Virus record (IMG/VR): IMGVR_UViG_3300021197_001928 | Location: 31,830 to 95,829 of that record | Source: a virus | Strand: one strand, 5' to 3' | DNA length: 64,000 bases | Part shown: piece after piece, positions 3,885 to 62,956 of the stretch | Layout: each line of letters begins with the position of its first letter | Numbering within the stretch: position 1 is the first letter of the stretch | Notes under the pieces: generated by a model | The model's input: the letters and a program-made list of their open reading frames with translations, nothing else | What the model was told of the DNA's origin: nothing | Databases searched by the model: none | Position numbers and translations under genes: made by a program

Positions 3885-3885
3885 T

Positions 3886-45900: not shown

Positions 45901-47663
45901 TGATCTCCTTCTAGAACATCCTTGAGAGTCTGAATGTCCGAAGAGTCTAGATCTAATTTTGCGATGGCTTCTTTGTACTGATCTGTAATGTCAGTTGCTT
46001 GAAGTTTACTTCCTTCGAATGGCACAATTGATGGAAAGAATTTTTTGATTGTAGACAATAACTCTAAGGCTTTCTTAACACCTCTTTCAATTTCATTAAA
46101 GCTCATCTTAACTGGTGGGGATTTGGAAAGGTTGTCAATAATTCGGCCAAGGCCTCCCTTTTCTATGTCTGTCCCAACAATGATTTCATATACATCTTCG
46201 ATTCTATCCAAAGTCTCACGATATTTTTGCATCTTTGCTTCAATATCAGGGCTAAGTTTCTCTTGTAATGAACCTCTTTCAACCGGTCCCATAATTTTAT
46301 TGATCGAATCATTTAACATCTTAATCTTTTCTTGAGTTGCGGTTGCAAATTTGACAACTTTCGCCCTTGAGGCATCACTGACGAGCTTTCCTCCCTTGGT
46401 GTCCTTCATTGCTTGGATCACAAGTTGTTCTGATAATTTAAGTGCTCGCTGAAATGCTCGTACAGAAGTCTTAAAATTTCTAATGTCGTTTGGCTTGGCA
46501 GCAATTTTATCGGCCCCTTCAGTTTCTTTGGCGGCAGGATCTTCTACTTCGTAGAGGTCATCTCTCTTAGCTGGTGTGTCCGTTGTAGGCTCTGCTGGTG
46601 ATTTTGTTGATCGATCACGGTCCGCTCGTCTTCCATATGCTTCGGCGGACTCTTCGTCTGAGAATGCTTTTAGGGCCTTCAAGAGAGCGGTTACTAATAC
46701 GGCTTGTTCTTGTAATTTTTTTTCTTTATAAAATTGATTTTTAAATTTGCCAAAAGAAATTCTAAGGGCTTTAAGTTTTTCTGGGTCTGGGTCGACTATT
46801 TCTTCGTCGTCTCCACCTTCTGTTTCTGCTGCCGGTTCTTCTGGTTTTGCGCTATCAGGTCCCGTCAATGCTTTTTTCAAAAACTCCATCACAGTGTCCT
46901 TTTTCAAAGCAGCAAAAAAGGATTTCTTGTCTTCTGTAGCCAAAGACCTCATATATTCCTCGAAAATTTCCTTAGTAAAGACACCAGCCTTGATGTATGG
47001 TGTGGCGCTTTCTTTTAATAATTTCTTTGTTGACAAAAATACTAAAAACTTTACAATTGCGTTTTGTTCAGCGGTGTCTGGTAGAATGTTCTTTATTTGC
47101 TCGCCATACTTATCGCTGATTTTTTTCACTGCTGGGTCTGTTTTTGCGGGCTCTTTTTCACCTTTGAGTTGCGCCAACGCTTTTTTGAGGTTTGGGTCTT
47201 CTTTGTTGTAAGCCATTAGATTTTGAATTAGTAGATTTTCAGTCTTAATTAAGTCAGCAAGCTGTTTACGGAAGTTGGCTTTAGCTTTTGGTTTGGCTTT
47301 GGACATCTTTTCTTCGTTTGAGAAAAGTTCAATCAGATCCATAAAGTTCTTAAAGTCACCTTTGAGAGGTTCTACTTTTTTCATTAATGAATCGTATGCC
47401 CCTTTGGCTATTGCTTCTCCCTGTTCGGGGTTATCTTTTCTAAGTTTAGCGTAGAAACCTTCTATGCCATCGCCATTCGAAAGATTTATCTTGCCTTGTT
47501 TTATCAACTGCATGAACACGGCCGTCGCTTTTTCAACAGAAGCTTTTATATCGCCTGCGGGTTGTTGCTGTTGGTTTTTGTTTTGCAACGGTAGGGGTTG
47601 CTGGATTTGTTTGTCTTCTGTTTCGTTAACAAAGCTCTGCCAGTTTTCTAATATAAGTTTCAT
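42993..47663 (-). CDS. Giant charged helical protein with MKLILENWQSFVNE leader; putative internal head (poly)protein
   Basis: 1556 aa, K/E/D-rich and Cys-poor. Shares a leader with 57434 and 60138, has many L/I-x-E sites, and has CTATTTA upstream. Confidence 0.6.
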   Translation of the reverse strand: MKLILENWQSFVNETEDKQIQQPLPLQNKNQQQQPAGDIKASVEKATAVFMQLIKQGKINLSNGDGIEGFYAKLRKDNPEQGEAIAKGAYDSLMKKVEPLKGDFKNFMDLIELFSNEEKMSKAKPKAKANFRKQLADLIKTENLLIQNLMAYNKEDPNLKKALAQLKGEKEPAKTDPAVKKISDKYGEQIKNILPDTAEQNAIVKFLVFLSTKKLLKESATPYIKAGVFTKEIFEEYMRSLATEDKKSFFAALKKDTVMEFLKKALTGPDSAKPEEPAAETEGGDDEEIVDPDPEKLKALRISFGKFKNQFYKEKKLQEQAVLVTALLKALKAFSDEESAEAYGRRADRDRSTKSPAEPTTDTPAKRDDLYEVEDPAAKETEGADKIAAKPNDIRNFKTSVRAFQRALKLSEQLVIQAMKDTKGGKLVSDASRAKVVKFATATQEKIKMLNDSINKIMGPVERGSLQEKLSPDIEAKMQKYRETLDRIEDVYEIIVGTDIEKGGLGRIIDNLSKSPPVKMSFNEIERGVKKALELLSTIKKFFPSIVPFEGSKLQATDITDQYKEAIAKLDLDSSDIQTLKDVLEGDQGKVAILSFQDRIIEFSKDIERIFGIPGLTEKDSADPDAEREDDKEDEEAEEEEATDFYKEGAEAAKRKYATDEFIMSLETEAQKTAFYYLISFFMKEGLITENIADKIKTKLGAAIVVIREINPNYAVLINKVLGDKKKADAFVDFLQRVDAKGMEATKTPFNTAISVSKFITMKLLKNTTISARIEDIGIKSGSQDENNLLRLLAYLLASDAEFIPALKKESISTMMNVSEPLAGDKRRAVLTLIMKKDKELFKWAMKWMKDNKVKVVKLFNAIEVFIEKKNYKFNTKGLKLAMLLNLNFKDPTLEIPEEEADVVKQTIEKIKDAPTFDMDNYDGYEELKTAIATKVIDVVQDEGNEEVFSWSSGQPDSVLEPIVQDLLASSGGLTLDTEKDPFEDSKFRKKYSKLPEFDSWKQMSKDQKTAVLNAIEKYDDEESEDKEPSRGVFDVTESRLRRAIKKYIVEAILKSNWEEMAGDLKSNDLFKGKKGINLISSFLRDFQDNYGDEIKDDPKGDDKKKNDEKKPETTKEDFKEVFQGLESVFEREYKQKYSDGKHFLNPDEFPQIEDNLVEKKANIITDMILKSKYPNIAIEIQIGRGGRSEQSIMYKLPQPLNIENSVPDFMGKMDKAIIEPEEKKDDEETEEPKSPESDGKWKTFFDDNKNIKFYKSINRLYRNVDQKTNGRFNQTEEWLDIAAGMLQEDKSSVDFEKFQNKLKYVESFIEIIKKKQTDKLKPKAVNQGFAVMQDYMELFERAWKKHKPEEEFPSPPIDSNLEGDDEFADLDLSDLDMSGDAAAIKDLEDINVEDDDFEIEDDEPSPILGQASIDSLKKLSKNKFVEDEILQLAKAWEDSLSDNPMEEERKLRRNRNRKIKGKKPQPLKNWQLKLKKTWEKGGEINDKNHVKLAMKMLKTPDEKLQKLLKKISIEKPSLFDAVYEKVKTAMNKKTAQQEQIERTLKPLIQKLMRGK

Positions 47664-51192: not shown

Positions 51193-51570
51193 TTATTTTA
51201 AAGAAATATGACCTCTTCCGCCAAATTGCATATTCCCGCTTGTGTCATCAGGTACTAGGTCAACTTTTTCGCCGGTATCAATTGATTTGCCCATTCTATA
51301 AATTTTGCCACCACTATGATTTACAAAAATTTCTATATCTTGGCCATCTTTATTGATAATAAACCGCATATATTCACCATCCTGTTCTTTTCTTATAGGA
51401 TGTGTTGACATACCACCGGGCTCATTAGGGTTATATAATAAAAGGTTCCTTGCATAGCTAATGAGATCTCTGCTGGTTCGGGGTCTTTTTTTGTAAGAAT
51501 TGAATCCCCTTCGCATCTCGCTAATTTCTTCCTTAATCATTTTCCGTAATAGTTCAGTTGTTATTTTCAT
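51193..51570 (-). CDS. Leader-bearing protein (MKITTELLRKMIKEE)
   Basis: Shared N-terminal leader; CTATTTA at 51595-51589. Confidence 0.7.
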   Translation of the reverse strand: MKITTELLRKMIKEEISEMRRGFNSYKKRPRTSRDLISYARNLLLYNPNEPGGMSTHPIRKEQDGEYMRFIINKDGQDIEIFVNHSGGKIYRMGKSIDTGEKVDLVPDDTSGNMQFGGRGHISLK

Positions 51571-51587
51571 AATAAATCCTCTTGATA

Positions 51588-51965
51588 CTAAATAGGTTCC
51601 TCAAAGTTATCGAACTTCATTTCGGCTAAATCAATTTTAAATTTATGTATTTCTTTTCTTAATTCTCCGGGTCTAATTCCAAGAAAAGAGGCTGCATCGT
51701 CAAAAGTCCTCGTTGAAGAAAGAGCAAATTTGAGACACGCCTCTTTGACAATATATTTCATAGACCTAAAAACAGGAAAGTTATATAATTTATTATTTAT
51801 ATGAGAAGCTGCCAACTCTAATTTAAGCCCAATAATATCCTCCAGAGAAAGACTTTGGAGCATAACCTCAAAATCGTCAGTGATCTTTTTTTCACGCTTT
51901 AATTTATTTCTTAGAGAATACTTGTAGTTTTTGCCTTTATATTCTCTTAACTTTTTTTTCCACAT
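51588..51965 (-). CDS. Fis-like HTH protein
   Basis: C-terminal ALSSTRTFDDAASFLGI...LRK. Confidence 0.55.
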   Translation of the reverse strand: MWKKKLREYKGKNYKYSLRNKLKREKKITDDFEVMLQSLSLEDIIGLKLELAASHINNKLYNFPVFRSMKYIVKEACLKFALSSTRTFDDAASFLGIRPGELRKEIHKFKIDLAEMKFDNFEEPI

Positions 51966-51970
51966 TTTTC

Positions 51971-51999
51971 TTGACTATTGGTTAATAATATGTTATATT
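51971..51999 (+). promoter_or_regulatory. Sigma70-type promoter oriented antisense to the minus-strand genes
   Basis: TTGACT-17 nt-TATATT with TGn extension. Confidence 0.45.
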
Positions 52000-52002
52000 A
52001 TA

Positions 52003-52905
52003 TTATGCTGTTTGTTTTGCTTGGTCATATTCTGGTGTTGTTGGCTCATCCACAGATGTTTGAAGCTCATCTTCAAATTTATCGAAGTAAAGCTTTATAT
52101 TCGTGACAAGATAATCCAAAAAGATTTTTTTATCCTCTGGGTTAGCTAGTGAATCATATGCATCAAGGATATACTGTGAGATCTTGCGATAACAAGTATA
52201 TGCGTGGTTACGTCCTGTTTCGTCCATTCCTTCTAAGCCACCACCAAAGTCCTCTTCAGGGCTTGGCTCATCGTCATCCTCAACAGGTATTTTTTTGTCA
52301 TCGTCACCTTCGTCATCAATATCAATTTCTATATCAGCTTCTTCAAGTGCGCCCAAGTCAGCGTCTTCTTCATCATCCAAGCCTAGATCGACATCTTCTA
52401 CATCCATGTCTTTCCCTTCACCACCACCAGTTGGTTCAGAAAGTAAAGTGGAACTACCACCAGAACCGCCTTGTAAATATTGAGAATTCACAGTCTCAGG
52501 CTTAAGTGCATCTATAATAGCTTTAACAATGTGTGATCTGAACGATTTTCGTTGATTTTCGTCTGTTGTGAGTTTTTTATAATCAGTACGTAATGTTGGT
52601 ATAGATTTTTTAAGAACATCTTCCAAGGTATTAATACCGGTTGATCTATGTGGATGAGTATCAGATAAATCTCCCTCTTTGAGAAGGTCACGAATAATAA
52701 CCCTTAATTGATATTCTTGTTTAATTTGCTCACTCAATAAATTTTTTAGTTTTCTTCGAACGTGCTCTCTTAATATTTTTTCATCTTCTGTCATTTCGTC
52801 TTCCTTTTTAACGGCAACACCTTGAACTGCACCTGCACCCATCGCAGACATTTCAAGTAATTGTTCAATTGTTGTAATTTCAACGATTGTGTTTTGATCC
52901 ATCAC
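52003..52905 (-). CDS. Acidic scaffold-like/internal head protein candidate
   Basis: Long D/E tract; LLE, LRE, LSE, LKE and LEE sites; internal leader-like LRVIIRDLLKE. Confidence 0.55.
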   Translation of the reverse strand: MMDQNTIVEITTIEQLLEMSAMGAGAVQGVAVKKEDEMTEDEKILREHVRRKLKNLLSEQIKQEYQLRVIIRDLLKEGDLSDTHPHRSTGINTLEDVLKKSIPTLRTDYKKLTTDENQRKSFRSHIVKAIIDALKPETVNSQYLQGGSGGSSTLLSEPTGGGEGKDMDVEDVDLGLDDEEDADLGALEEADIEIDIDDEGDDDKKIPVEDDDEPSPEEDFGGGLEGMDETGRNHAYTCYRKISQYILDAYDSLANPEDKKIFLDYLVTNIKLYFDKFEDELQTSVDEPTTPEYDQAKQTA

Positions 52906-53684
52906 TTTTTACCTTTTTTCTTGTTATCTAAATATGCCTGAAGGCCGGGATTTAATTTTCCTTTCTTTTTCTTGGGTTTGTCTTCACCTTCACCCTCTTC
53001 CTCACCAGTATTATCTTCACTATCACCTTCATTTTCTTTCATAGGTTTTTCATCTTTTTCGGTGTCGCCCTCTTCTTTATCCTTGGCAGCATCAGACATT
53101 GATTCCTCTTTGTCACCATCACCATCGATATCAGCAAAGTCAGGTTTCTTTTCTTCTTTAAGTTTTCCAAGATCCATTTTGAATCCCCACTTTCCGGTGA
53201 GAAGACCACCGATTTCTTTGTTTTTCCATTCTTTTAAAGACATTTTTCTATTTCTCCTTTCGTTATAAATAGTATTTTCTTTCTCTTTTAGACTATCTTC
53301 CCAGTCTCTAAACAACATTGGGTCATTAGCCTCTTTTTCCATCTTTCTTAGATGTGGGTTTTTCTGTGCATATCCCTTACCAGAGTAACCTGAGTCTTCA
53401 AACTCACCATTCTCATTCTGGCTGTGATGCACCAATTCGTGCGCTATAGATCTTAGGATGTCCTTGGGGTGCCTGTTAGTTGCAAACACGTGAATTTCCA
53501 TAGTGTTGGGGTCGTAATGGCCTGTTTTGCCAAGAGTGTTACTAGCATTTCTCTTGTCATGGTTAAGAAAGATACTTGGGGGCTTTTCAAAGCCTAATCT
53601 TTGTTGAGCGAAATCACAAAGACTGTGTACTTCTTTTTCATATTCAACCGGAGATCCTGTTTTGTTGTTAATTTTAAAATTCAT
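52902..53684 (-). CDS. Zincin-like metallopeptidase domain with an acidic/basic tail
   Basis: RHPKDILRSIAHELVHHSQN...MEKEAN; tail DFADIDGDGDKEE. Start uncertain (53684-53696). Confidence 0.7.
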   Translation of the reverse strand: MNFKINNKTGSPVEYEKEVHSLCDFAQQRLGFEKPPSIFLNHDKRNASNTLGKTGHYDPNTMEIHVFATNRHPKDILRSIAHELVHHSQNENGEFEDSGYSGKGYAQKNPHLRKMEKEANDPMLFRDWEDSLKEKENTIYNERRNRKMSLKEWKNKEIGGLLTGKWGFKMDLGKLKEEKKPDFADIDGDGDKEESMSDAAKDKEEGDTEKDEKPMKENEGDSEDNTGEEEGEGEDKPKKKKGKLNPGLQAYLDNKKKGKK

Positions 53685-54456
53685 AATCGTCATCATCCTC
53701 TAAATTAATTCCGCTAAAATCCAGATCATCGTGACCGCCGAACATTTTTTCAAATTCATCCTTTTCTGGTTCCGGCGGCACCAATTCATCTTTACCGTAT
53801 CCTCTCATGTCAAGAACGGCACCAGCGACGTCGGTTGCACTTGAGGGGACACCTCTATTATGCACGATTTTTAATAGAGTTTCGTTTGTTATATTAGGGT
53901 GCTGTGCCGCAGACCCAACAAGCTGGAAATCGATTTTCTTTATTCCATGGTCAACTAAGCGGTCAAGTATTTCGGCTGTTGCACTAGGATTAGAGGCAAC
54001 ATTGCGCTTTGTCCGTTGGTGTTCCTTTTCCATTGATAAGGTATCGAGCATTTCTTTAGTCGAAGAAGAATTTAAAGCAAGGCTAGCACGTACTCTAAGT
54101 TTGTCGTTATCCAATAAATTTTGCAAAACATCCACTGGAGTTACCGGGTTTACGGCAACTTTCGCCAAGACATATGTATTTGCAGGTGGCGCCGTGGCAA
54201 AGATTCTCATTGCTTCGGGTGATTGCTTTATTGTTGGGTGTGCTATAACCATTCTTATAATTTTTGAGTTTTGACTCAAATCACTGTAGGAGACTGGCAC
54301 ACCCAGCATATCTGCTAGCTCAATTCCTTGAATCACAAAAGTTCCATCGTCTGATTTAAGCAATTGATCAAGTTTTGGCATTCCGGTACTCTCTCTGAGG
54401 GCTTTTGAGAGTTCTTCTTTTATTATTTGTTTTAATTGTTTTGTTGTTAATTTCAT
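53674..54456 (-). CDS. Leader-bearing protein (MKLTTKQLKQIIKEE) with LRV/HEAT-like repeats
   Basis: Repeats VAVNPVTPVDVL, LALNSSSTKEML, VASNPSATAEIL, AAQHPNITNETL. Confidence 0.75.
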   Translation of the reverse strand: MKLTTKQLKQIIKEELSKALRESTGMPKLDQLLKSDDGTFVIQGIELADMLGVPVSYSDLSQNSKIIRMVIAHPTIKQSPEAMRIFATAPPANTYVLAKVAVNPVTPVDVLQNLLDNDKLRVRASLALNSSSTKEMLDTLSMEKEHQRTKRNVASNPSATAEILDRLVDHGIKKIDFQLVGSAAQHPNITNETLLKIVHNRGVPSSATDVAGAVLDMRGYGKDELVPPEPEKDEFEKMFGGHDDLDFSGINLEDDDDYEF

Positions 54457-55028
54457 TGTTTATTTCCACTTAATATTGCGTCTTGTTCCTCTTTGGTAGT
54501 CTTTATTGCTTTGATTTTATCAAAGGTCATAACTGTCGGTTCCCCGCTGGCCCTGTATCCAAGTCTGTGGTATGTACCAACATAATTTTGTCTTATATCT
54601 TCGAAGAAATTATCCCACTGAAGGAAAGAATATTGGGGATGTTTGTGCTTTTTATGCATCCCCTCTGGGTCGTTCTGCCAGTCATATATTTTGTTTCCGG
54701 GGATATCCGCATAGAAGAGCCCACCATGACCAGAAGTAACCATTCCTTCGGTATTCTCAAGATCAACATACCAATAGGATCGCTTATATCCGCTAGCGTT
54801 AACATCCCGCATTGTATATCTTTGCTTACCAAACATTTCAGGGTCAACTACCATACTGTCTTGTTCAGAGTGCCCCCCTTTAGGAGTATAATGAAAAACT
54901 CTCAGCACACCGGGTGCATATAATCCGATGTAGTCACTTAGTTCTTTGGTACCTTCTGGTTCCTCGGATAGAACATTTTTGAGTTCTTCTTTTATTATTT
55001 GTTTTAACCGTTCTGTTGTCAATTTCAT
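54453..55028 (-). CDS. Leader-bearing protein (MKLTTERLKQIIKEE), possible ADP-ribosyltransferase-like fold
   Basis: Start refined to ATG 55028 (ATGA overlap). RVFHYT...KRSYWY...LFYADIPGNKIYD resembles ART-superfamily strands; the fold call is weak. Confidence 0.55.
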   Translation of the reverse strand: MKLTTERLKQIIKEELKNVLSEEPEGTKELSDYIGLYAPGVLRVFHYTPKGGHSEQDSMVVDPEMFGKQRYTMRDVNASGYKRSYWYVDLENTEGMVTSGHGGLFYADIPGNKIYDWQNDPEGMHKKHKHPQYSFLQWDNFFEDIRQNYVGTYHRLGYRASGEPTVMTFDKIKAIKTTKEEQDAILSGNKQ

Positions 55029-55360
55029 ATCTTCATATCCTTTTTGCACTCTTCGTTATAATGTATAAACTCGACCACATTGCCATCCGGGTCTTTTACA
55101 TAACAACCAGTTGTACCGTCCCTATGTTGGACAACTTGCCCTAAATGTGAAGGCAAATCTCGATATTCACCAACATAAATACCTATGTGGGCATCACTAT
55201 AATGTTTTTTATCAATAAGAGCGAGTGTGACATTGCCCATAGCCATTCTTTTATACTTATAGTCTTCAAAAACTAACTCAGCACCACAGTTTTTTTCATA
55301 CCATTTCTGTGAGATTTCCAGATCTTCTACTAAAATTGCTATATGGTCTACTATTTTCAT
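55025..55360 (-). CDS. VOC/glyoxalase-family protein
   Basis: DHIAILVEDLE.S..WY, HIGI, YVKDPDGNVVE. Confidence 0.88.
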   Translation of the reverse strand: MKIVDHIAILVEDLEISQKWYEKNCGAELVFEDYKYKRMAMGNVTLALIDKKHYSDAHIGIYVGEYRDLPSHLGQVVQHRDGTTGCYVKDPDGNVVEFIHYNEECKKDMKI

Positions 55361-55364
55361 AATT

Positions 55365-55583
55365 CTAATTAGTCTCCTCAAGTCTTAATTGAAATGGACT
55401 AAGGGATATTGTGTCTCCCGTCTTCGAACAAACAACCATTATCACACTCACAGGTCTTCCACCCATAATTTTAGCTATTTTATCGATAATTGTGCCATAA
55501 TAGACCACTTCTATAATATCATTATCAACAACTGCCCACTCAGACCATGAAACTAGATCACCTAGTTCAAATCCGTAGGACAT
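55365..55583 (-). CDS. Small SH3/KOW-like protein
   Basis: FELGDLVSW...YGTII. Start refined to MSYGF. Confidence 0.6.
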   Translation of the reverse strand: MSYGFELGDLVSWSEWAVVDNDIIEVVYYGTIIDKIAKIMGGRPVSVIMVVCSKTGDTISLSPFQLRLEETN

Positions 55584-55602
55584 TGTTTCACCAAAAGCAA
55601 CT

Positions 55603-55773
55603 TTACTCTCCAATTTTGACATTTTCAACCCAACAACACAAGCCTTTACCTAAGTAGTTATACATTAATTCTATTGCAATATCATAATCATAGGGCCCTA
55701 GCGTTTGCCAAGACTCATTAATTAAAGTTTTCTTGTAAATTCTTACATAATATTTCACATAATTGAGAGTCAT
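55603..55773 (-). CDS. Small hypothetical protein (56 aa, not in ORF track)
   Basis: MTLNYVKYYVRIYKK...GPYDYDIAIELMYNYLGKGLCCWVE; TAATG coupling with the upstream ORF. Confidence 0.6.
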   Translation of the reverse strand: MTLNYVKYYVRIYKKTLINESWQTLGPYDYDIAIELMYNYLGKGLCCWVENVKIGE

Positions 55774-55904
55774 TAGTCATTCTGCTCTCCAATTTTTAAA
55801 TAAATTAGACACAAAACCACTATGACAGGTATATCAAAGCCAAAAATAACATACAAAAACAAAATTGACATCATAAAGAGGATGCCAAACAAAGCTTTTT
55901 CCAT
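55773..55904 (-). CDS. Small membrane protein (43 aa, not in ORF track)
   Basis: MEKALFGILFMMSILFLYVIFGFDIPVIVVLCLIYLKIGEQND; TGATG coupling. Confidence 0.6.
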   Translation of the reverse strand: MEKALFGILFMMSILFLYVIFGFDIPVIVVLCLIYLKIGEQND

Positions 55905-56221
55905 CAATTTAGACCAATCCATTCAATTTCTTCCTCTGGTACCATAACTAAGACACCTAATCCAAAGGTGTAGGGTGTAAATAAGCAGTATCTTCCTTGT
56001 TTATCCTTCTTAATGCTGTCAACCCAATAGAAATCAGCACTCTTTTCTATCCATACGAAGGACTTATCTGCTAAAGACCAGTAAAAAGCCTTCCCTTTTC
56101 CTTTAATTTTGACCGTATACAGGCAGTCACCCTTCTTATTTTTAATAAACCCGGCCATACGAGCGGCTAATTTGATGTAATTCGTGAAAAACTCTTGATC
56201 TTCCTCTTCAAATGACACCAT
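55904..56221 (-). CDS. Hypothetical protein
   Basis: 105 aa; CTATTTA at 56244-56238 upstream. Confidence 0.65.
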   Translation of the reverse strand: MVSFEEEDQEFFTNYIKLAARMAGFIKNKKGDCLYTVKIKGKGKAFYWSLADKSFVWIEKSADFYWVDSIKKDKQGRYCLFTPYTFGLGVLVMVPEEEIEWIGLN

Positions 56222-56255
56222 AAGTACCCCCTACAAGTAAATAGAAACCAAAAAC

Positions 56256-57434
56256 TTATTCTCCACCACCGTCGCCACCACTGTCACCACCGGAATCATG
56301 TGCATGGGAGCCTATATAAGGCCATAATGACCCCCTATTTCGGCGTTTTTTGGGTGTTTTACGGCGCTTTTTACGCCCTTTCTTGCGCTTTTCATCCATA
56401 TTTTGGACGATTTTTACCTTAATTTTGCGTTTTTTTTTATCATCTTTCTCTTCCAAAGCTCCAAAGCCGGCTGGTGCACTCTTTGAACGACTCATTTTAG
56501 GCCTTTTATGGCCTTTTCCGCCTCCAAAACTCTTATTTTTGCCTAATCCAATCAACTTTTTCTTCATTTTCTTATGTTTTCGCTTCTGAGAGCGCTGAAA
56601 ACGGCTCTCTTCACTGATTATTCCTTGATTTTTGATCATTTCTACCGCTGAACGTACAATTTGAGTGCCATTTTTGGCATATTTAAACATTTCATCCACA
56701 GAAACCCACACATATTCGTCATTTTCTTGAAAATCTTGCATATCTAGGTTGATTTCGGGCTCATTTTGCTCTAATTTGGTCTGAAAAAAAGTAATATTGT
56801 TATTTTTACCCTTCCAGTGGAATATTTGAGAGCCAATTTTCTCTAAATACGGCAATAACAAGCCTGTTTCTTCCATTATTTCCCTTTCTGTGCCCTCAAT
56901 AGGTCCATCTGGGCGATTTACTTCCAATTCTTTGAGGTGTCCGCCCGGAATATCCCATTTTCTGCCTTCATCTGTGCGCCTTAAGAGTAAAATTCGGTCA
57001 TTTTTGTCATATATGATAGCTTTTCCAACTTCTGGGCTGTCTTTTAAGAAATCAAACGGATTTTTTACCTGTATTTTGCCAAAGTTGTTGGAAATCTCCT
57101 CTAAACTATCATCATAATGGAGCGTAGAGCCTAAATTTTCGAGCTTTTCTAACTTTAATGCACCTTCGGTATAGTGAATTCTTTCGGGCGTAAAATAACT
57201 GCTTAATAAGAGCTTCTCAAGGTATGCCGGAACTGTAAATTCGGGAAAAAGATCTTCTTTATCTCTAGATCGTGCTGTAACAATATGAATATCGTCTCCT
57301 TTTTCAATATGAGATTGGATTAACTCAATAATTTTATCATTATAGCCATCAAAAACAAAAATTGGCTTATTATCTTCAATTAGCATGTGAGCCATAACGA
57401 TTGTGTCATCAAAATCGAAAGTTATTACAGCCAT
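56256..57434 (-). CDS. HAD-like phosphatase-Nudix hydrolase fusion with a strongly basic tail
   Basis: FDFDDT, VTAR, HYDD; Nudix box WDIPGG...REIMEETGL; K/R-rich C-terminus. Confidence 0.8.
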   Translation of the reverse strand: MAVITFDFDDTIVMAHMLIEDNKPIFVFDGYNDKIIELIQSHIEKGDDIHIVTARSRDKEDLFPEFTVPAYLEKLLLSSYFTPERIHYTEGALKLEKLENLGSTLHYDDSLEEISNNFGKIQVKNPFDFLKDSPEVGKAIIYDKNDRILLLRRTDEGRKWDIPGGHLKELEVNRPDGPIEGTEREIMEETGLLLPYLEKIGSQIFHWKGKNNNITFFQTKLEQNEPEINLDMQDFQENDEYVWVSVDEMFKYAKNGTQIVRSAVEMIKNQGIISEESRFQRSQKRKHKKMKKKLIGLGKNKSFGGGKGHKRPKMSRSKSAPAGFGALEEKDDKKKRKIKVKIVQNMDEKRKKGRKKRRKTPKKRRNRGSLWPYIGSHAHDSGGDSGGDGGGE

Positions 57435-58183
57435 TACTTCTCATCTCCGTGAATTCCGGTTTTTTCCGGCTGATATTCGTTGTTAAATAATCTATTTGCT
57501 TGTTTTGCTATTTCTCTTCGTATAAGATTCACTGATATATCGCTTTTATCTAAATAATCATTTAAATTATTAATTTGCTTTGTTACAATGGCCTGAACGG
57601 AGGAAATTCTTTCCGGAGGGATCTGTAGGCTATGATCTGAGGCCGCTTTATAGACACTTACGTCATCACAGTCGTCATTAGGGTCTGGTGTTGTCCCATT
57701 ATAATCAAAAGTATCACTTCCACCGATTATTTCTCCATCTTCATTGTATTCTTCTGTGCCCGGTGCAGTTTTTCTCTTAATGTATCCAAATTCGTTTTCA
57801 AGTTTGTTCCAAACTTTTGCTGCTGGCTTGGTAGTACTAGTCAAATGGTCCGAGGTTATGCCTCCTTTATAATTTTTTAGCACTAAGAGTGAGGCGACTT
57901 CATATAAATACGTTCCAATACCTCTTTCAAGAGCGCTTGGGTGAACCGCAACGGCACCAATTTCATGTGTGTCCGGAATGCAGGGCTTATCTGTCATTGT
58001 ACTTGTCTCAATCATTCCAATAACCATTGGTGTCTCTGGAGGTTGTGCCGATGCTAAATCAACAAGAGCCAAATTCATGCCGACTGATGTCTGAAAGGTA
58101 TATAATCCTAAGGTTTCCATTTTATATTCTTTGGTCCAAGATTCATTTACAAATTTACGCCAGCTTTCCATTAATAATTTCAT
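57434..58183 (-). CDS. Leader-bearing (MKLLMESWRKFVNE) GNAT acetyltransferase-like protein
   Basis: AVAVHPSALERGIGTYLYE (GNAT motif A) and SD...T..A..VW. Confidence 0.7.
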   Translation of the reverse strand: MKLLMESWRKFVNESWTKEYKMETLGLYTFQTSVGMNLALVDLASAQPPETPMVIGMIETSTMTDKPCIPDTHEIGAVAVHPSALERGIGTYLYEVASLLVLKNYKGGITSDHLTSTTKPAAKVWNKLENEFGYIKRKTAPGTEEYNEDGEIIGGSDTFDYNGTTPDPNDDCDDVSVYKAASDHSLQIPPERISSVQAIVTKQINNLNDYLDKSDISVNLIRREIAKQANRLFNNEYQPEKTGIHGDEK

Positions 58184-58196
58184 TGTTTTTTCCTAT

Positions 58197-58245
58197 ATTA
58201 TAGCACATTTTGTGCCGTTTGTCAAACGTTTTCGACAATAAATAG
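58197..58245 (-). promoter_or_regulatory. Tandem promoters: CTATTTA motif plus consensus sigma70 promoter
   Basis: CTATTTA at 58245-58239; TTGACA(58225-58220)-17 nt-TATAAT(58202-58197) with TGn extension. Confidence 0.75.
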
Positions 58246-58251
58246 TTAAAT

Positions 58252-59217
58252 TTACTGATAATAGTAAGCAATCTCCACTAAACTTTTTTCATCAGGCATT
58301 GTATTGAAATAAACACGGTTTTCAGCATCAACATAATGCCAATCATAATTGGGCACACCATCAATAAAAACATAAATCCTATCATTATAAAGTGGAACAT
58401 GTGTTAACTCCCAATAATCATATTGAGTAATCTGTGTTCCGGCGTCTGCAACGCCCTGAGACCAGTCTTCAGAACAAATATCTATCGTTTGACCGGGTAA
58501 TCCATTAGCGGCATCAATATATCTTTTTCCTTCATTCAAGGGTGAGGCTGGTTGACACTCGGTATCTCCCTCCTTCAACTGTACTATCGAAGAAACAAAA
58601 ACATATTCTCTCTCGGTAGATATCCAACCTATAAAATCACTAGGGCTGGGAAAATGCACATAGCTTTGCTCTTCTTCATCTGATACAAAAACAATCAATA
58701 AAGCAGCATCTTCTCTCATCCATGTAGAGGCATAACCATTTCCCATATACGATCTCACCGCATCAAAACCTTTCTCGTGGTGCCCTGTTACAGTTGTGCT
58801 TAGTTGATCCTCGGCTTCTTGAGACCCGTCTCCCGGAATTAGAGGGAACTCTTGGGTTTGAGCAGACCGAGTCGGATCAGCAGATATAATCGCTAATCTC
58901 CAACCAGAAACCGGCAACACACTTAACATATCACCAATTCCAGCAACTACTCTTGGCCTATCATTAATCATAGAACCAGAAGGGTCGATCACCCATAAGA
59001 TGTCAACCCCTTCAAAATTGCCCGGCTGTGTAAAATTATCAACCCATATGTCTGCTGCGTCCTGTCCAGTATCTTGGATAATTATCGTATCCCCTTCAAT
59101 ATAAACATCTTGCTGAGACACCCACGTCTCAACCTCTTCGTAAGTTATTTTTTCAACCTCGTATGTGAGCATGTGATCCGATATACATGCGAACAAAAAT
59201 AAAAACCAGACAAACAT
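58252..59217 (-). CDS. vWA-domain lipoprotein
   Basis: Lipobox LFAC; MIDAS motif VDILWVIDPSGSM; IVFVSDE. Confidence 0.8.
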   Translation of the reverse strand: MFVWFLFLFACISDHMLTYEVEKITYEEVETWVSQQDVYIEGDTIIIQDTGQDAADIWVDNFTQPGNFEGVDILWVIDPSGSMINDRPRVVAGIGDMLSVLPVSGWRLAIISADPTRSAQTQEFPLIPGDGSQEAEDQLSTTVTGHHEKGFDAVRSYMGNGYASTWMREDAALLIVFVSDEEEQSYVHFPSPSDFIGWISTEREYVFVSSIVQLKEGDTECQPASPLNEGKRYIDAANGLPGQTIDICSEDWSQGVADAGTQITQYDYWELTHVPLYNDRIYVFIDGVPNYDWHYVDAENRVYFNTMPDEKSLVEIAYYYQ

Positions 59218-59263
59218 AACATAAATCCCCCCATACTAGTAACTATGAGGTAAAATTATTAAT

Positions 59264-59686
59264 CTATTTTTGTTTTGAAAAAAGCCGAAGACAGTTTTTT
59301 GGGATGGTATAAGTATAATCTTCCTCTGCAAAATAAACAAGGTAAGAGTCAATCACATTGCTCATTTCTCTTCCGTCAAAATCTGAGGTTTTAATTATTG
59401 TTTCTGCGATGATTGTACCAATCCCTTTGTAATTTAAAATTTCTTTAATATTTGGTTTTAACTCAACCAAATCACCAATTTTTAATTTATCTTTTTTAGT
59501 ATTCATGCTTATTTTGTCGATGTAGTCATTCATTAGAGTAATGTCTTCACTATCTGTAAATAGGCGGATCTTAGAAGAATAAAGACCAACGTATGTAATT
59601 ACACCCGGCACATGGCGAGCCCCGATTAAACCAATCAGCCATGGATTATTGCTTATTACTATGTCTCCGATTTGAAACTGCATCAT
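59264..59686 (-). CDS. Tandem SH3/KOW-like protein
   Basis: FQIGDIV and LKIGDLV repeats. Confidence 0.6.
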   Translation of the reverse strand: MMQFQIGDIVISNNPWLIGLIGARHVPGVITYVGLYSSKIRLFTDSEDITLMNDYIDKISMNTKKDKLKIGDLVELKPNIKEILNYKGIGTIIAETIIKTSDFDGREMSNVIDSYLVYFAEEDYTYTIPKNCLRLFSKQK

Positions 59687-59864
59687 CTATTTCAGTGCAG
59701 AACACCAACCTCCTTAAATCTTCTTGTGGAAAATGTACCACGTAAGAATTTAAAATTTCGCCAAAGTTAATTGACTCCCTTTTTTCAATAACTATGCCAT
59801 ATCCATAATTAATGAACCGATGCTTAACTAGGTCTCCAATGTTAAAATTAATTTTTCTATGCAT
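59646..59864 (-). CDS. Small SH3/KOW-like protein
   Basis: FNIGDLVKH...YGIVI...YVVHF. Confidence 0.6.
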   Translation of the reverse strand: MHRKINFNIGDLVKHRFINYGYGIVIEKRESINFGEILNSYVVHFPQEDLRRLVFCTEIDDAVSNRRHSNKQ

Positions 59865-59879
59865 ATTTATAATTATAAC

Positions 59880-59908
59880 TTGACACAAAGTTTATAGTGT
59901 GTTATAAT
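59880..59908 (+). promoter_or_regulatory. Sigma70-type promoter
   Basis: TTGACA-17 nt-TATAAT, exact consensus. Confidence 0.8.
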
Positions 59909-59924
59909 ATCAAATGGAGAAAAT

Positions 59925-60104
59925 ATGGACAAAGAAAGAAAAGAAAGAATCAAAAAAATGCTTGTGGGAGCCATCACTCACCCTCTAGAGGCATGTGTAG
60001 AGCTTAGTTTTTATATTATATCACTCGCAGTTGGTATATGGATATTAGGCTTTGCTTTATCGTTTTTGGTCAAGATAATGCAGCCAATGATTTTTCTAAC
60101 ATAA
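59925..60104 (+). CDS. Small membrane protein (59 aa, not in ORF track)
   Basis: MDKERKERIKK...FYIISLAVGIWILGFALSFLV; GGAG RBS and a consensus promoter upstream. Confidence 0.7.
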   Translation: MDKERKERIKKMLVGAITHPLEACVELSFYIISLAVGIWILGFALSFLVKIMQPMIFLT

Positions 60105-60137
60105 AAGACTATTTAGGATTATTGGAGAAACCAGAAT

Positions 60138-60914
60138 ATGACTACAAATATGAAACTTATTTTTGAAAATTACAGAAGAGGGATGCTTGCTGAGGAGGAA
60201 GAAGTAGAACCACAGACTGTTGGTTCGCTAGTTGATACTCTAGAGGCACACATACTTGCAAATAGTGATAAATTAAAAAGAGTGGCTAATGCGATTGTTA
60301 AAGCTTTTGAGACCTTTGCTGAAGAGTTCCCTGAAAAAGCTGAGGAGCTAGCAGAAATCACATCAAAAATAACAGAATTGTTTACCGAAATAGCAGCAAA
60401 CGGCTTACGTGCAGTGCTTAAAACCATGGGTAAATCAAAAGTTGTTGAATATTTAAAAATTATGGCAACAAACACAATAATTCAGGAGTTTTTAGCTAAA
60501 AAGGTTGGCGCAAAGGTGTTAAAATTCGTTCTCGAAGAAATGATACCAGCCGCCAAAGTGATTATTTCAACTGGTAGAACAATTATGGGACTATTTAAGG
60601 TCGCAAAGTCAGTTAGAGACGCAGTTGAATCTGGTACTGGGGATCCTAACAAAGCATTTGCCATGATTGTTAAGGATGTAATGACTGCCGAGGACAATAA
60701 AGCAACAACTGCTGGCTTTATGAAGATGCTTAACATTGATGATGAGTGGTCCAAGATGCTGGATAACAAAATTGAAATGGAATTTATCGAACAATCAATT
60801 CAATACATCAGAACAGTCGACCCAAGTACGACTCTAGATAAAATTAATCTAAACCAGAGACTTGTTGCATTCTTAAAGCAAAAATTTGATGGAAGAACAT
60901 TAGCAAAACAATAA
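60138..60914 (+). CDS. Leader-bearing helical protein (MKLIFENYRRGMLAE)
   Basis: 258 aa; ACTATTTAG at 60108-60116 on the sense strand; GGAG RBS. Confidence 0.7.
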   Translation: MTTNMKLIFENYRRGMLAEEEEVEPQTVGSLVDTLEAHILANSDKLKRVANAIVKAFETFAEEFPEKAEELAEITSKITELFTEIAANGLRAVLKTMGKSKVVEYLKIMATNTIIQEFLAKKVGAKVLKFVLEEMIPAAKVIISTGRTIMGLFKVAKSVRDAVESGTGDPNKAFAMIVKDVMTAEDNKATTAGFMKMLNIDDEWSKMLDNKIEMEFIEQSIQYIRTVDPSTTLDKINLNQRLVAFLKQKFDGRTLAKQ

Positions 60915-60921
60915 ATTTTAC

Positions 60922-60950
60922 TTGACAAAACCTCCTTAACAGGTTATATT
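60922..60950 (+). promoter_or_regulatory. Sigma70-type promoter
   Basis: TTGACA-17 nt-TATATT. Confidence 0.7.
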
Positions 60951-60967
60951 GTATAAGAGAGGTAATT

Positions 60968-61849
60968 ATGTTTTATATTTTGTTTGCGTTTTTATATGCA
61001 TGCAGTTCTGACGTGTCTGTGATCAAAAGGATAACCGAAGAAACGGGAGAAAAAGAATCCGGTATTGAGCCGGGTGTCGGACCATCTACGGAACCTGATT
61101 TGCCACCACCGCCCATTGAAGGGAATGGTGGGTATATTCACTATTATCTACGACAGATTGCATGTCCCGCCTGCGTTGGGGAGCAACAAGAACTCCTCGT
61201 GGAGTTCGGAGCCAAATTTTTTCAACCTACTAACGAAAATCACACGGATTGGATACCTCCTTTAGGAGAGTGTGTTGATCAATTGCTCATAACGAGCCCT
61301 TCAACAAACAAAATAGATGTTGGTGAGTCCCTTACAATAACAGGGCCGGTACATTCATTCATTGCTCAAAAGCAAGGAGACGAATATTATGCCCAGATCT
61401 ATGAGACACAGTATGATAGGAACTCAATCCACAATGTGTCTATACCGTCCGAGGATGCCGAAATTCAGTTCTTATCCATGGAAGGGTATGATTACATAGA
61501 ACCGCAAGAAATGCTGTATATTGACCCTTCTTATGCGTTCTCTGCCCCTATCTATAGGACGGGGATGACGTTTAGCTGGGCTCCCTATGATACCTCTCGT
61601 ACATACATGATATTATTAGCTGTATACTCCTCAGACGGATCACAATTGCTGGGTTACTCAGTTTGTACAGGTCCCGATCAGGGGTTTCTTGCATTTCCCG
61701 CATCAGCGTTACAGTCCTTTCCTTACGGGTCTCTAGTCTTGATTCATTTGTCTCGTCACCAAATTGACTTTTTTCCTTATGAACCGATGGGATCTCATAT
61801 TGAAACCCATATGGAGTGGGAAGTTATAGGAACAGGCTATATGCAGTAG
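60968..61849 (+). CDS. Lipoprotein, function unknown
   Basis: Lipobox LYAC-SSD, Pro-rich linker, CPAC; GAGG RBS. Confidence 0.75.
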   Translation: MFYILFAFLYACSSDVSVIKRITEETGEKESGIEPGVGPSTEPDLPPPPIEGNGGYIHYYLRQIACPACVGEQQELLVEFGAKFFQPTNENHTDWIPPLGECVDQLLITSPSTNKIDVGESLTITGPVHSFIAQKQGDEYYAQIYETQYDRNSIHNVSIPSEDAEIQFLSMEGYDYIEPQEMLYIDPSYAFSAPIYRTGMTFSWAPYDTSRTYMILLAVYSSDGSQLLGYSVCTGPDQGFLAFPASALQSFPYGSLVLIHLSRHQIDFFPYEPMGSHIETHMEWEVIGTGYMQ

Positions 61850-61853
61850 CTTT

Positions 61854-62498
61854 TTATTTTTCTCGCATATGCATTGGAACAGGATTATATAGAATTCCAT
61901 TTATTTCACGAATTTTTCCGTCCTCAATGTATTTTTGAATTTCCCCGACGATTAATCTATACAACTCAGGAGCATATGACATCCACTCAGCGTTGAATCT
62001 TTCTTGATCTGCCCCGCCACCCTCGGAATTTTTGTATTCTTCCCAGTTCATGGAATATAAATGGTCCATCATAAACCTTTGTTCCGTAGTGGCCAGTTGT
62101 TCCTTGGTTATGTGCATCGGTTCCCAGTATCCTTGACCTTGCATTGGGTTTTTCACGTACTGGTCCAAGTTAACACCTTGGTTTTGCCAATAGCGAATTC
62201 TGTTTCTTGTTGGAAGGTTCTGAATTCCGCTGATTGTTTCTCTAATGAACTTGGGAATCAATCTGGCACCTTGAAATTCAAGTTTATGAGCCATGCTTTC
62301 CTCGGAACCCATAGCCGAAGCTAATTCATATGAGGAAACATAATCCTCATAATCCCCGCTTGACTCTATATTGTCGAGTTTGCCCATTATTTCATCGTCA
62401 AAGCCAGCAGCCTTTCTAGCCATAAAGCGCCTAGAATTGGTTACCTCGTTTATTTCTTCGATGATAATTTTCCGTAATTGTTTTGTTGTTAACTTCAT
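61854..62498 (-). CDS. Leader-bearing protein (MKLTTKQLRKIIIEE)
   Basis: Shared leader; 214 aa. Confidence 0.7.
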   Translation of the reverse strand: MKLTTKQLRKIIIEEINEVTNSRRFMARKAAGFDDEIMGKLDNIESSGDYEDYVSSYELASAMGSEESMAHKLEFQGARLIPKFIRETISGIQNLPTRNRIRYWQNQGVNLDQYVKNPMQGQGYWEPMHITKEQLATTEQRFMMDHLYSMNWEEYKNSEGGGADQERFNAEWMSYAPELYRLIVGEIQKYIEDGKIREINGILYNPVPMHMREK

Positions 62499-62956
62499 TA
62501 TAAAATTCCTTTTTCTTGTAAAAACTCTTGAAACTCTTCCACGTTTTGGAATGCATTGTCGTTCATGTGCTCAACTCCCACCAAGTCAAAAAGCGCTTTC
62601 TTATTTCTACCATAATTTTTAAAAAATTCATCTAATGCTTTTTCGGCCATATCAACTTCACTATAGAAGCCGCTTTGCTGTGCCTGATGGAGTGTATTTT
62701 GCAATCGCTGTTGTTCAGGGTTTGCTCGTATACCAATACTGTTATGCCAAATGCCTTGCGCCAGTTGGCGCTTTAAATCCGGGCCTATGTTATCTAGGTC
62801 AAGCACTTCCATAAAGTCTAGTGCCATCGCCATTTCAGTTTTCATCATATCAATAACCTTCATTACTTCTTGTTCAGTCATTTGGTTATCTTCTTGTATA
62901 ACGTATGCCAATTCTTCTTTTATTATTTGTCTTAATTGTTTTTGTGTCAATTTCAT
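62498..62956 (-). CDS. Leader-bearing protein (MKLTQKQLRQIIKEE)
   Basis: Shared leader; 152 aa. Confidence 0.7.
   Translation of the reverse strand: MKLTQKQLRQIIKEELAYVIQEDNQMTEQEVMKVIDMMKTEMAMALDFMEVLDLDNIGPDLKRQLAQGIWHNSIGIRANPEQQRLQNTLHQAQQSGFYSEVDMAEKALDEFFKNYGRNKKALFDLVGVEHMNDNAFQNVEEFQEFLQEKGIL

Follow-up and report, generated by a model that had tools for sequence, protein, structure and literature searches.

Five minus-strand genes in a 64,000-nucleotide stretch of IMG/VR record IMGVR_UViG_3300021197_001928 (the window; positions 31,830 to 95,829 of the record) start with nearly the same N-terminal helix, here called the class-1 leader, and further genes of the window start with a second, shorter leader, class 2. 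The record is 95.8 kb long and about 53% complete, and the phage behind it is a distant, uncultured, marine relative of T4. The leader genes of the window, in window coordinates, and the protease of the same genome are:

51193..51570, minus strand: class-1 protein of 125 aa; leader at about residues 1-18 (about 51517-51570), ending in I-S-E
53674..54456, minus strand: class-1 protein of 260 aa; leader at residues 1-22 (54391-54456), ending in L-R-E
54453..55028, minus strand: class-1 protein of 191 aa from the ATG at 55028; leader at residues 1-22 (54963-55028), ending in L-S-E
61854..62498, minus strand: class-1 protein of 214 aa; leader variant with IIIEE, in which I-N-E ends at residue 18
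62498..62956, minus strand: class-1 protein of 152 aa; leader at residues 1-22 (62891-62956), ending in I-Q-E
57434..58183, minus strand: class-2 protein of 249 aa, starting MKLLMESWRKFVNE; body weakly GNAT-like
60150..60914, plus strand: diverged class-2-like protein of 254 aa from an internal ATG, starting MKLIFENYRRGMLAE; class assigned by eye only
42993..47663, minus strand: class-2 protein of 1556 aa, starting MKLILENWQSFVNE
Genome positions 2124-2750, outside the window: gp21-type prohead protease, Peptidase_S77, from Pfam and an alignment with T4 gp21

The strand, start positions (51570, 54456, 55028, 62498 and 62956) and N-termini of the five class-1 ORFs are as the sequence-only reading gave them, and the leader, searched as a degenerate DNA pattern, hits exactly these five sites in the window, against 0 expected from 100 dinucleotide-preserving shuffles. 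The 22-residue consensus, MK[IL]TKxQL[KR]QIIKEE-[LI]-x-x-h-h-x-E, forms an amphipathic helix with hydrophobic residues every ~3-4 positions. The second [LIV]-x-E claimed for each protein is present in all five as an [LI]-x-E with its Glu at residue 18 or 22, and all five also carry I-K/I-E14. Five copies is the right count for the window and too low for the whole record, which has 11 class-1 genes (9 strong and 2 diverged copies). Behind the leader the bodies diverge completely, as had been stated: in an all-against-all BLASTP of the bodies every pair stays above E = 0.001, and the lowest value, E = 0.002 over 39 residues, belongs to the LRV-like protein (53674..54456) and a class-2 protein. 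Full-length homology of the bodies had been named beforehand as a refutation and is not seen in this comparison. The body of 51193..51570 is basic and matches nothing in Pfam or PHROG; that of 61854..62498 is likewise without an assigned family in Pfam and PHROG, and its tandem neighbour, 62498..62956, has an acidic body.

The class-2 leader, MKL[LI]xENWxxF[LIV]xE (MKLxxENWxxFxxE), stands on four more genes of the record. Its conservation is down to background right after E14, and this leader, too, ends at h-x-E. Among its bearers in the window, 57434..58183 matches Acetyltransf_1 of Pfam at E = 0.0011, below the cut-off, and the 1556-aa protein has no match in Pfam or PHROG. A CTATTTA motif lies 25 nt upstream of 51193..51570, 37 nt upstream of 42993..47663 and 29 nt ahead of the annotated start of 60150..60914.

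The end of the class-1 leader was located with 160 distinct IMG/VR leaders, in which positions 16-22 lay outside the search pattern. These positions are conserved nonetheless, and 101 of the 160 leaders have an [LIVMF]-x-E whose Glu is residue 21 or 22, compared with 1-15 at most other positions; about 37% have no h-x-E at residue 21/22. From residue 23 on, information content is at background, and the commonest residues are Gly, Glu and Asp. By its residue pattern the leader thus ends in a predicted prohead-protease site, h-x-E. In an AF2 model of the LRV-like member the leader is predicted as a separate helix ahead of the body, with residues 5-22 helical (pLDDT about 63), a break at 23-26 and a body of pLDDT above 90.

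A protease suited to such a site is encoded in the T4-type head module of the record, which comprises TerL, a gp20-like portal (PHROG E = 1.8e-70) and the head maturation protease. The last matches Peptidase_S77 at E = 1.9e-35 (122.6 bits against a Pfam cut-off of 27), and an alignment with T4 gp21 (PDB 5JBL; E = 3e-20) shows both catalytic motifs, ELDHP with the His and SSRGLGS with the Ser, to be conserved. The absence of a Glu-specific prohead protease from the genome had been set beforehand as an argument against the leader being a capsid-targeting tag; an enzyme of this Glu-specific family is present. The interval from portal to protease contains one class-1 and one class-2 leader gene, the gene directly after the protease begins with a related helix containing four L/I-x-E sites, and in another genome a similar N-terminus is found on a gene slightly downstream of the protease. 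As judged from sequence, the N-termini of the protease's head-module neighbours are therefore leader-like.

In IMG/VR the leader occurs at no fewer than 119 loci (>= 119) of uncultured phages, and matches to a leader profile extend over 12,107 protein-cluster representatives. Five records, this one included, contain 5-14 copies per genome on the coding strand, with 0 hits for a reversed-pattern control, and in the records searched leader genes often form tandem arrays. Of 14 other large leader-bearing records, 13 have Peptidase_S77 (all records compared were leader-bearing), among them all three that are at least 96% complete. The distribution is near virus-only: 185,579 prokaryote species genomes yield 13 leader stretches, 12 of them in MAG contigs, several of which hold multi-copy leader arrays and look like mis-binned phage; the sole isolate match, which by eye resembles a GntR-type N-terminus, is probably due to chance. 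The leader is absent from the four cultured T4-like phages HTVC008M, P-SSM2, immuto and Mel-JY01, no cultured phage bearing it turned up in the searches, and the peptide was not found in the literature searched. The expectation of many strictly N-terminal leaders on unrelated bodies held in its number, the leader being portable among unrelated bodies in thousands of clusters, and failed in its strictness, since some metagenomic ORFs contain two to four copies of the motif and some internal copies have no Met. A free N-terminus is therefore not needed, and were an internal copy cut at its end, the tag would remain with the fragment upstream of the cut.

The cargo, as we shall call the bodies, is mostly small (median 114 aa) and mostly acidic, with 70-80% having a pI below 6 compared with 45% of all genes in the record. 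Class-1 cargo is mostly uncharacterised, 96% of the proteins of at least 110 aa having no Pfam domain. Class-2 cargo in IMG/VR includes the Pfam families GNAT, the commonest, NUDIX, Zeta-toxin-type kinase, HNH, HAD and GDSL. The leader is also joined to Pfam families that exist without it (AAA_33, FliG_C, GNAT, NUDIX, Zeta toxin and HNH).

Two bodies in the window had been assigned folds. The LRV/HEAT-like assignment of 53674-54456 is supported by sub-threshold matches to the LRV families of Pfam (PF01816 / PF25591; LRV_2 19.8 bits with a cut-off of 27, LRV 18.3 with a cut-off of 21.6), by several homologues with precomputed LRV matches and by a confident, all-alpha repeat AF2 model with weak fold matches to 1LRV and ARM/HEAT proteins (TM <= 0.38). 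The leader is followed here by a predicted alpha-solenoid (LRV/ARM/HEAT-like) body and an acidic C-terminal tail ending DDYEF. Within this family the leader stays near-identical while the bodies drop to 25-40% identity, an outcome that the seed-word search favours. The ART-like assignment of 54453-55028 survives as a lead only: ESM Atlas structural neighbours (RES, PARP and ART-PolyVal) are found at the low TM of 0.44-0.49, suggesting that the body may have an ART-superfamily fold; Pfam gives no match, the AF2 model (pLDDT 32) is unusable, and there is a single homologue, at 78% identity.

These observations suggest that the shared N-terminal helix is most likely a tag that loads proteins into the phage head. 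More specifically, we put at roughly 60% the probability that the 22-residue helix is a capsid-targeting propeptide, like the capsid-targeting sequence (CTS) of T4, that is removed by the prohead protease. We infer docking, then cleavage, with the body retained in the virion and finally injected. As the prohead assembles, the amphipathic helix would dock the attached protein on the scaffolding core; the gp21-type serine protease would then cut after the Glu of h-x-E at residue 21/22, perhaps with a further cut after I-K-E14; and the freed body would stay inside the head and exit with the DNA at infection. The shorter class-2 tag would likewise load larger, enzyme-like cargo. Since the tag is portable, the lineage would employ it for packaging the proteins of a large and rapidly changing repertoire, and by analogy with T4 these may act as effectors or against host defences.

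The tag could instead target the prohead for another end, with the proteins serving as disposable core or scaffold filler that, like T4 gp22, gp67 and gp68, is cut up and expelled before DNA packaging, and so is neither retained nor injected. T4 core proteins are indeed cut at L/I-X-E and mostly exit the head (PMC9026906), many of the bodies here are small and acidic, with Gly, Glu and Asp abundant right after the leader, a leader gene is situated within the head module itself, between the portal and protease genes, and the 96% of larger class-1 cargo without a Pfam domain would suit filler. Filler would, however, be expected to contain many cuts, and several candidate folded bodies that were checked have few or no further L/I-x-E past residue 22. 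Some cargo also appears folded and function-like (the confident alpha-solenoid model, weak kinase-like matches), the families of class-2 cargo are difficult to reconcile with filler, and the extreme diversity of 12,107 clusters suits arms-race cargo better. We therefore consider this alternative unlikely.

The helix might also have its role outside the virion, as an oligomerisation or coiled-coil handle, or by binding some shared partner of host or phage origin (for instance polymerase, ribosome, chaperone or membrane) that co-locates the proteins in the infected cell. Its amphipathic character would be in keeping with this, internal and repeated copies are unusual for a cleaved N-terminal propeptide, and the GntR-like bacterial N-terminus that fits the pattern, if a chance match, implies that such helices arise easily. 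Left unexplained, however, are the h-x-E boundary at residue 21/22 with its instant loss of conservation, a second leader class ending exactly at h-x-E, the near-perfect association with Peptidase_S77 and the leader-like N-termini beside the protease, which makes a role of this kind quite improbable.

That conservation acts on the nucleic acid, the 45-nt start being an A-rich translation-initiation enhancer or a cassette-swap recombination junction with the peptide as by-product, is very improbable, because a third of same-residue codon pairs differ (34% among the 11 genes of the record), the amino acids are near-invariant over distant genomes with different codons, conservation up to residue 22 persists only as a residue pattern, internal copies lack a start codon and no relation exists among the upstream sequences of the 11 genes, despite a same-residue codon identity of 66%, where the codon usage of the genome predicts 44%, and despite stretches of about 27 bases shared exactly by adjacent copies and variable tandem arrays. 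The unrelated upstream DNA and the differing codon pairs argue that selection acts at least partly on the peptide; some conservation of the leader may still be at the DNA level. In T4-like phages, promoter-stem-loop junctions are thought to let gene cassettes swap between phages, and here the shared start may incidentally help recombination, to the benefit of the phage.

If the helix works as a capsid-targeting tag, packaged proteins would be predictable from sequence by a simple rule, much marine viral 'dark matter' would become a defined class of proteins delivered with the DNA, and the hypothesis could be checked directly in existing viral metaproteomes. If it does otherwise, it still ranks with the most widespread of the undescribed peptide motifs of phages in our search. 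A wider proposal, which we offer tentatively and consider less likely than not, is that a near-invariant 22-residue code and a second one of 14 residues load more than ten thousand protein families into the virions of an abundant, uncultured, marine T4-like lineage, including multi-tag polyproteins, each to be split by the prohead protease into its individual cargoes. Were this so, one could read the injected 'first-strike' proteome of uncultured ocean phages straight from sequence, host-takeover and anti-defence proteins would become accessible from a very large and so far untouched reservoir, and the tag would be a ready-made handle for protein delivery.

Comparable address labels are known from several systems. 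Encapsulin cargo-loading peptides, compared here by description, are short and portable and dock diverse cargo inside an HK97-fold shell, that of a bacterial nanocompartment; they differ from the leader in being usually C-terminal and not removed by a protease, and have no sequence relation to it. In phage P1 the N-terminal 30 residues of DarB, of the Dar anti-restriction system, suffice for a reporter to be taken up into capsids, and the cargo reaches the cell, where it counters restriction (PMC9024508). P1 is not T4-like, and DarB, again compared by description, is a single protein in the stepwise Dar assembly pathway and does not represent a family-wide tag.

Closer parallels are found in the giant phages phiKZ, 201phi2-1 and SPN3US, in which diverged gp21 homologues cut the propeptides of head and ejection proteins after Glu, and many head-internal proteins have N-terminal propeptides, some as short as 20-24 residues (PMC10052503, PMC9026906). 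For these phages a short cleavage motif is described and no shared leader (PMC10052503, PMC9026906), whereas here the leader itself is conserved. Most of their propeptides are, moreover, long (111-254 residues).

Among T-even phages about ten leader-loaded injected proteins have been described, of which three block restriction nucleases. The cut made by T4 gp21 falls after L/I-X-E, and a CTS propeptide has 10-19 residues (PMC9026906); the CTS directs packaging into the scaffolding core, gp21 removes it, and the injected proteins block GmrSD nucleases (PMC3012670, PMC9026906, PMC12373910). As with T4 IPI, IPII, IPIII and the variable ip loci, a short N-terminal leader ending in L/I-x-E is here the sole thing common to unrelated small proteins, the genes lie in variable tandem clusters and the genome encodes a gp21-type protease. 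The T-even CTS, MKTYQEFIAE, has by inspection no more in common with the class-1 leader than MK at the start and h-x-E at the end, and no demonstrable homology to it, so that, judging from the motifs, the resemblance is one of architecture; the class-2 leader is closer in form. CTS-bearing T-even proteins are basic (PMC9026906), whereas the cargo here is mostly acidic, with a motif that is sometimes internal or repeated, and is known from sequence alone. Against the 10 residues of the T-even CTS the leader has 22, and against the three such genes of T4 there are 11 or more per half genome. What would be new relative to the T-even phages is a different and far more conserved tag, on 5-14 genes per genome and in more than 12,000 clusters from mostly marine phages, that stays near-invariant over a huge uncultured lineage.

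Five genes in the window begin with nearly the same N-terminal helix. Their starts, as claimed on the minus strand by the sequence-only reading, were all confirmed with the N-termini it had quoted, and a degenerate DNA pattern (M-[KN]-h-T-x3-L-x2-[IM]-I-x-E-E, where h is hydrophobic) gave exactly these five matches in the window and none in 100 dinucleotide-preserving shuffles of it. The second [LI]-x-E said to follow is present in each protein, ending at residue 18 or 22, and the bodies do diverge, with no pair at E <= 0.001 in an all-against-all BLASTP with the first 25 residues removed (best pair E = 0.002 across 39 residues). The window makes up the right-hand 64 kb of a 95,829-bp IMG/VR virus record, which CheckV estimates to be 53% complete, and a scan of the whole record found further copies of this class-1 leader, all eleven lying at the extreme start of an ORF:

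Window 51570, minus strand: start of a class-1 gene
Window 54456, minus strand: start of the class-1 gene for a 260-aa protein (53674-54456)
Window 55028, minus strand: start of the class-1 gene for a 191-aa protein (54453-55028)
Window 62498, minus strand: start of a class-1 gene
Window 62956, minus strand: start of a class-1 gene
Genome starts 3049, 9806, 11019 and 12498: further strong class-1 copies, outside the window
Genome starts 21415 and 22569: diverged class-1 copies, the protein at 22569 having weak kinase-like matches

Comparison of 160 distinct IMG/VR leaders, in which positions 1-4 and 8-15 were set by the search pattern and are hence uninformative, revealed that conservation extends to positions 16-22, which were free in that pattern. 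L, I or V occupies position 16 in 129 leaders, positions 19-20 are mostly hydrophobic, and Glu stands at position 22 in 75. An [LIVMF]-x-E ends at residue 21/22 in 101 of the 160, compared with 1-15 at most other positions, and is absent from there in about a third. Information content is at background from residue 23, where Gly, Glu and Asp are commonest. In the AF2 model of the 260-aa member (22 homologues, mean pLDDT 85.6) the leader forms a separate helix (5-22), followed by a break (23-26) and a confident α-solenoid body. Within the family of this protein the bodies fall to 25-40% identity and the leader is almost identical, in a homologue search that seeds on shared words and is thus biased toward leader-bearing matches. 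By inspection, the leader is highly charged and lacks a hydrophobic core, and it was accordingly rejected as a signal for secretion or lipoprotein formation. The DNA upstream of the leader genes is unrelated between copies, on which ground a mobile element or DNA repeat was rejected as well.

A second, unrelated leader ends in the same way. This class-2 leader (MKLxxE[NS]WxxF[VI]xE or MKL[LI]xENW[RNK]xF[LIV]xE) is 14 residues long, and its conservation is lost entirely right after the terminal [LIV]-x-E (E14). It heads three genes of the record, with a looser variant elsewhere:

Window 42993-47663: class-2 gene, 1556-aa protein
Window 57434-58183: class-2 gene, weakly GNAT-like protein
L001 (whole record) 3511-3927: class-2 gene, third of three
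Window 60150-60914: looser class-2 variant

At least 120 IMG/VR stretches carry the class-2 leader, several of them on contigs that also bear class 1. Class-2 cargo, with a median of 202 aa, is the larger of the two and often resembles enzymes, with Pfam matches (n = 100) to GNAT (4), HAD_SAK_1 (3), NUDIX (2), Zeta toxin (2) and AAA_33 (2), and single matches to GDSL lipase, HNH, tRNA-ligase CPD and ParB_N. These families are common without any leader, which supports leader portability.

Of the 93 class-1 cargo proteins with at least 110 aa, just 4 gave a Pfam match. Cargo is mostly acidic, with a pI below 6 in 70-80% compared with 45% of all genes in the record. The LRV/HEAT-like body proposed earlier is supported for the 260-aa protein, a probable LRV/ARM/HEAT-like solenoid in view of Pfam LRV matches below cut-off, LRV hits in several homologues, the confident AF2 model and weak fold matches (TM up to 0.38); the ART-like assignment, which concerns the 191-aa protein (AF2 pLDDT 32, from a 2-sequence alignment), is a lead only. 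Proteins of the LRV-like family share a conserved acidic tail at the C-terminus (window 53674-53710), whose last residues are DDYEF in several of them; it resembles the acidic tails with an aromatic end in single-strand DNA-binding proteins and could be a mimic of them. Also among the leader genes are 56256-57434, whose product is a NUDIX hydrolase that has a DxDxT motif of HAD type at its N-terminus and a long tail rich in Lys and Arg, and 52902-53696, whose product has a zincin-like HExxH motif and, after it, an acidic tail rich in Lys and Glu. The T4-type late promoter consensus TATAAATA lies upstream of only two genes, only one of them a leader gene. Sense-strand CTATTTA, which could be a late promoter, occurs 14-90 nt upstream of several tail- and head-module-region genes and some leader genes (window 13667, 23376, 47700, 51595, 56244, 58245, 60109, 63329 and others).

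A T4-type head module lies in the left part of the record and comprises a large terminase, a gp20-like portal (PHROG E = 1.8e-70) and, at genome 2124-2750, a head maturation protease. The Glu-specific-type prohead protease whose absence would have counted against the sequence-only reading is present: it scores above the curated cut-off for Pfam Peptidase_S77 (E = 1.9e-35) and aligns with T4 gp21 (structure 5JBL, E = 3e-20), in which alignment the motifs that contain the His (ELDHP) and the Ser (SSRGLGS) are both retained. Peptidase_S77 was likewise found in 13 of the 14 further large records with a leader that were tested; the remaining record is only 58% complete. Between portal and protease there is a gene of each leader class, the gene directly after the protease has a related N-terminal helix with four L/I-x-E sites, and in another genome a gene shortly downstream of the protease has a similar N-terminus. 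Judged by the portal, Flavobacterium phage immuto (39.5% identity) and Microcystis phage Mel-JY01 come nearest among cultured phages, Rhodothermus RM378 being more distant; immuto and Mel-JY01 have the same gene order, which runs from terminase and portal through a few small genes to the protease, the scaffold region and a gp23-type capsid protein. The capsid gene of our record is beyond the contig end, in the missing part of the genome that is also expected to contain a gp22-like scaffold. A very basic 68-aa protein (pI 11.8; L001:1508-1714, minus strand), two genes downstream of the protease, is probably a phage-encoded ribosomal protein S21, since Mel-JY01 has an annotated S21 gene at the same relative position. 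Adjacent to the portal is a further head-module protein:

L001:4571-5389, minus strand: conserved basic 272-aa protein

It has 12 L/I-x-E sites, about 3.4 times the genome density (mean 1.3 per 100 residues), and is a candidate prohead core or scaffold protein. Tara Oceans samples account for some of its 3,728 homologues, which indicates a phage lineage that is abundant and at least partly marine, with this protein as a marker. Modelled as a complex with this protein (alignment A3), the leader (alignment A1) scored 0.17, below the mark of 0.32, which speaks neither for nor against docking.

The class-1 leader is widespread in uncultured phages. An IMG/VR scan with the leader pattern found at least 119 stretches, and the 172 sites among the matches listed are almost all at ORF starts (median protein length 114 aa). 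Five records, including the present one and three that are >= 96% complete, were searched without a start-codon requirement and have between 5 and 14 copies apiece, always on the coding strand and often in tandem arrays; the reversed pattern gave 0 copies in every one, excluding a chance low-complexity match. A 30-column profile of 43 leaders retrieved 12,107 proteins at E <= 0.001 from 1.84 billion cluster representatives. A search of 185,579 prokaryote species genomes gave just 13 stretches with the pattern, twelve of them in MAG contigs, several of which bear multi-copy arrays and look like mis-binned phage; the sole isolate match, in Paenibacillus ehimensis (L268:1847-1891), has an N-terminus like that of a GntR-type regulator and probably resembles the leader by chance. 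No copy was found in Pelagibacter phage HTVC008M, Prochlorococcus phage P-SSM2, immuto or Mel-JY01. A tblastn search of 50,697 phage records with the 22-aa consensus, insensitive at such a query length, gave one weak match, to an uncultured 484-kb phage with two loose leader copies. Pfam and PHROG hold no family spanning the leader and nothing for most bodies, full-text literature searches for QIIKEE, RIIKEE and KIIKEE returned unrelated cGAS papers only, and topic searches for comparable systems only work on T4, phiKZ, SPN3US and P1.

The expectation of many strictly N-terminal hits held for most sites, which are ORF starts, but some copies are internal and repeated. Two to four copies per ORF occur in 105 of the best 150 of the 12,107 profile matches, a list in which multi-copy proteins rank high since their domain scores are summed. 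Metagenomic ORFs with 2-4 leaders in one frame (P0001, P0004, P0011, P0049 and P0074) could represent natural polyproteins or else tandem genes that have become fused. Internal copies mostly begin Met-Lys preceded by residues resembling a translated ribosome-binding site, which suggests fused tandem genes; a substantial minority have no Met, and the motif therefore appears able to work, or at least to be tolerated, internally. Cutting after an internal copy would strand the tag on the upstream fragment.

In T4, the only common part of the internal proteins is a 10-19-residue N-terminal capsid targeting sequence (CTS) with affinity for the prohead core, which gp21 cuts off after L/I-X-E before the proteins are injected with the DNA (PMC9026906, PMC3012670); Ip1, Ip2 and Ip3 each block another GmrSD restriction enzyme (PMC12373910). 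Because the features described here match this architecture point by point, we consider the same mechanism the best explanation, with a probability of about 60%. The leader would dock tagged proteins in the prohead, the protease would cleave it off, and the proteins would be retained in the head and then injected. The capsid-targeting proposal is partly supported, having withstood every in-silico refutation test available: the leader, its boundary, its distribution and its association with the protease are observed, and from these we infer docking, cleavage, retention and injection.

Among the alternatives, the proteins that the tag targets may be core filler to be disposed of and not cargo for delivery, which we think unlikely. 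Slightly less likely still, the leader could be a docking or oligomerisation helix unrelated to the virion, but this would leave unexplained both the sharp h-x-E boundary common to two unrelated leaders and the association with the protease. That the leader is conserved chiefly as nucleic acid, for translation or recombination, is very improbable, and here too boundary and protease association go unexplained. Some DNA-level conservation or shared recent origin is present among the nine strong copies, as same-residue codon identity is 66% vs 44% expected, although one third of such codon pairs are unlike and the upstream DNA is unrelated.

T4-type capsid targeting is our preferred reading, and the comparison extends to the protease itself, whose L-T-E at residues 6-8 is comparable to the LIE of T4 gp21, ending at residue 9 (PMC9026906). 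The cargo differs, being mostly acidic here whereas the CTS-bearing proteins of T-even phages are basic (PMC9026906). The leader system would represent a new variant of T4-style capsid targeting, distinguished by the near-invariance of its leader, the number of copies per genome and the size of the protein space that it tags.
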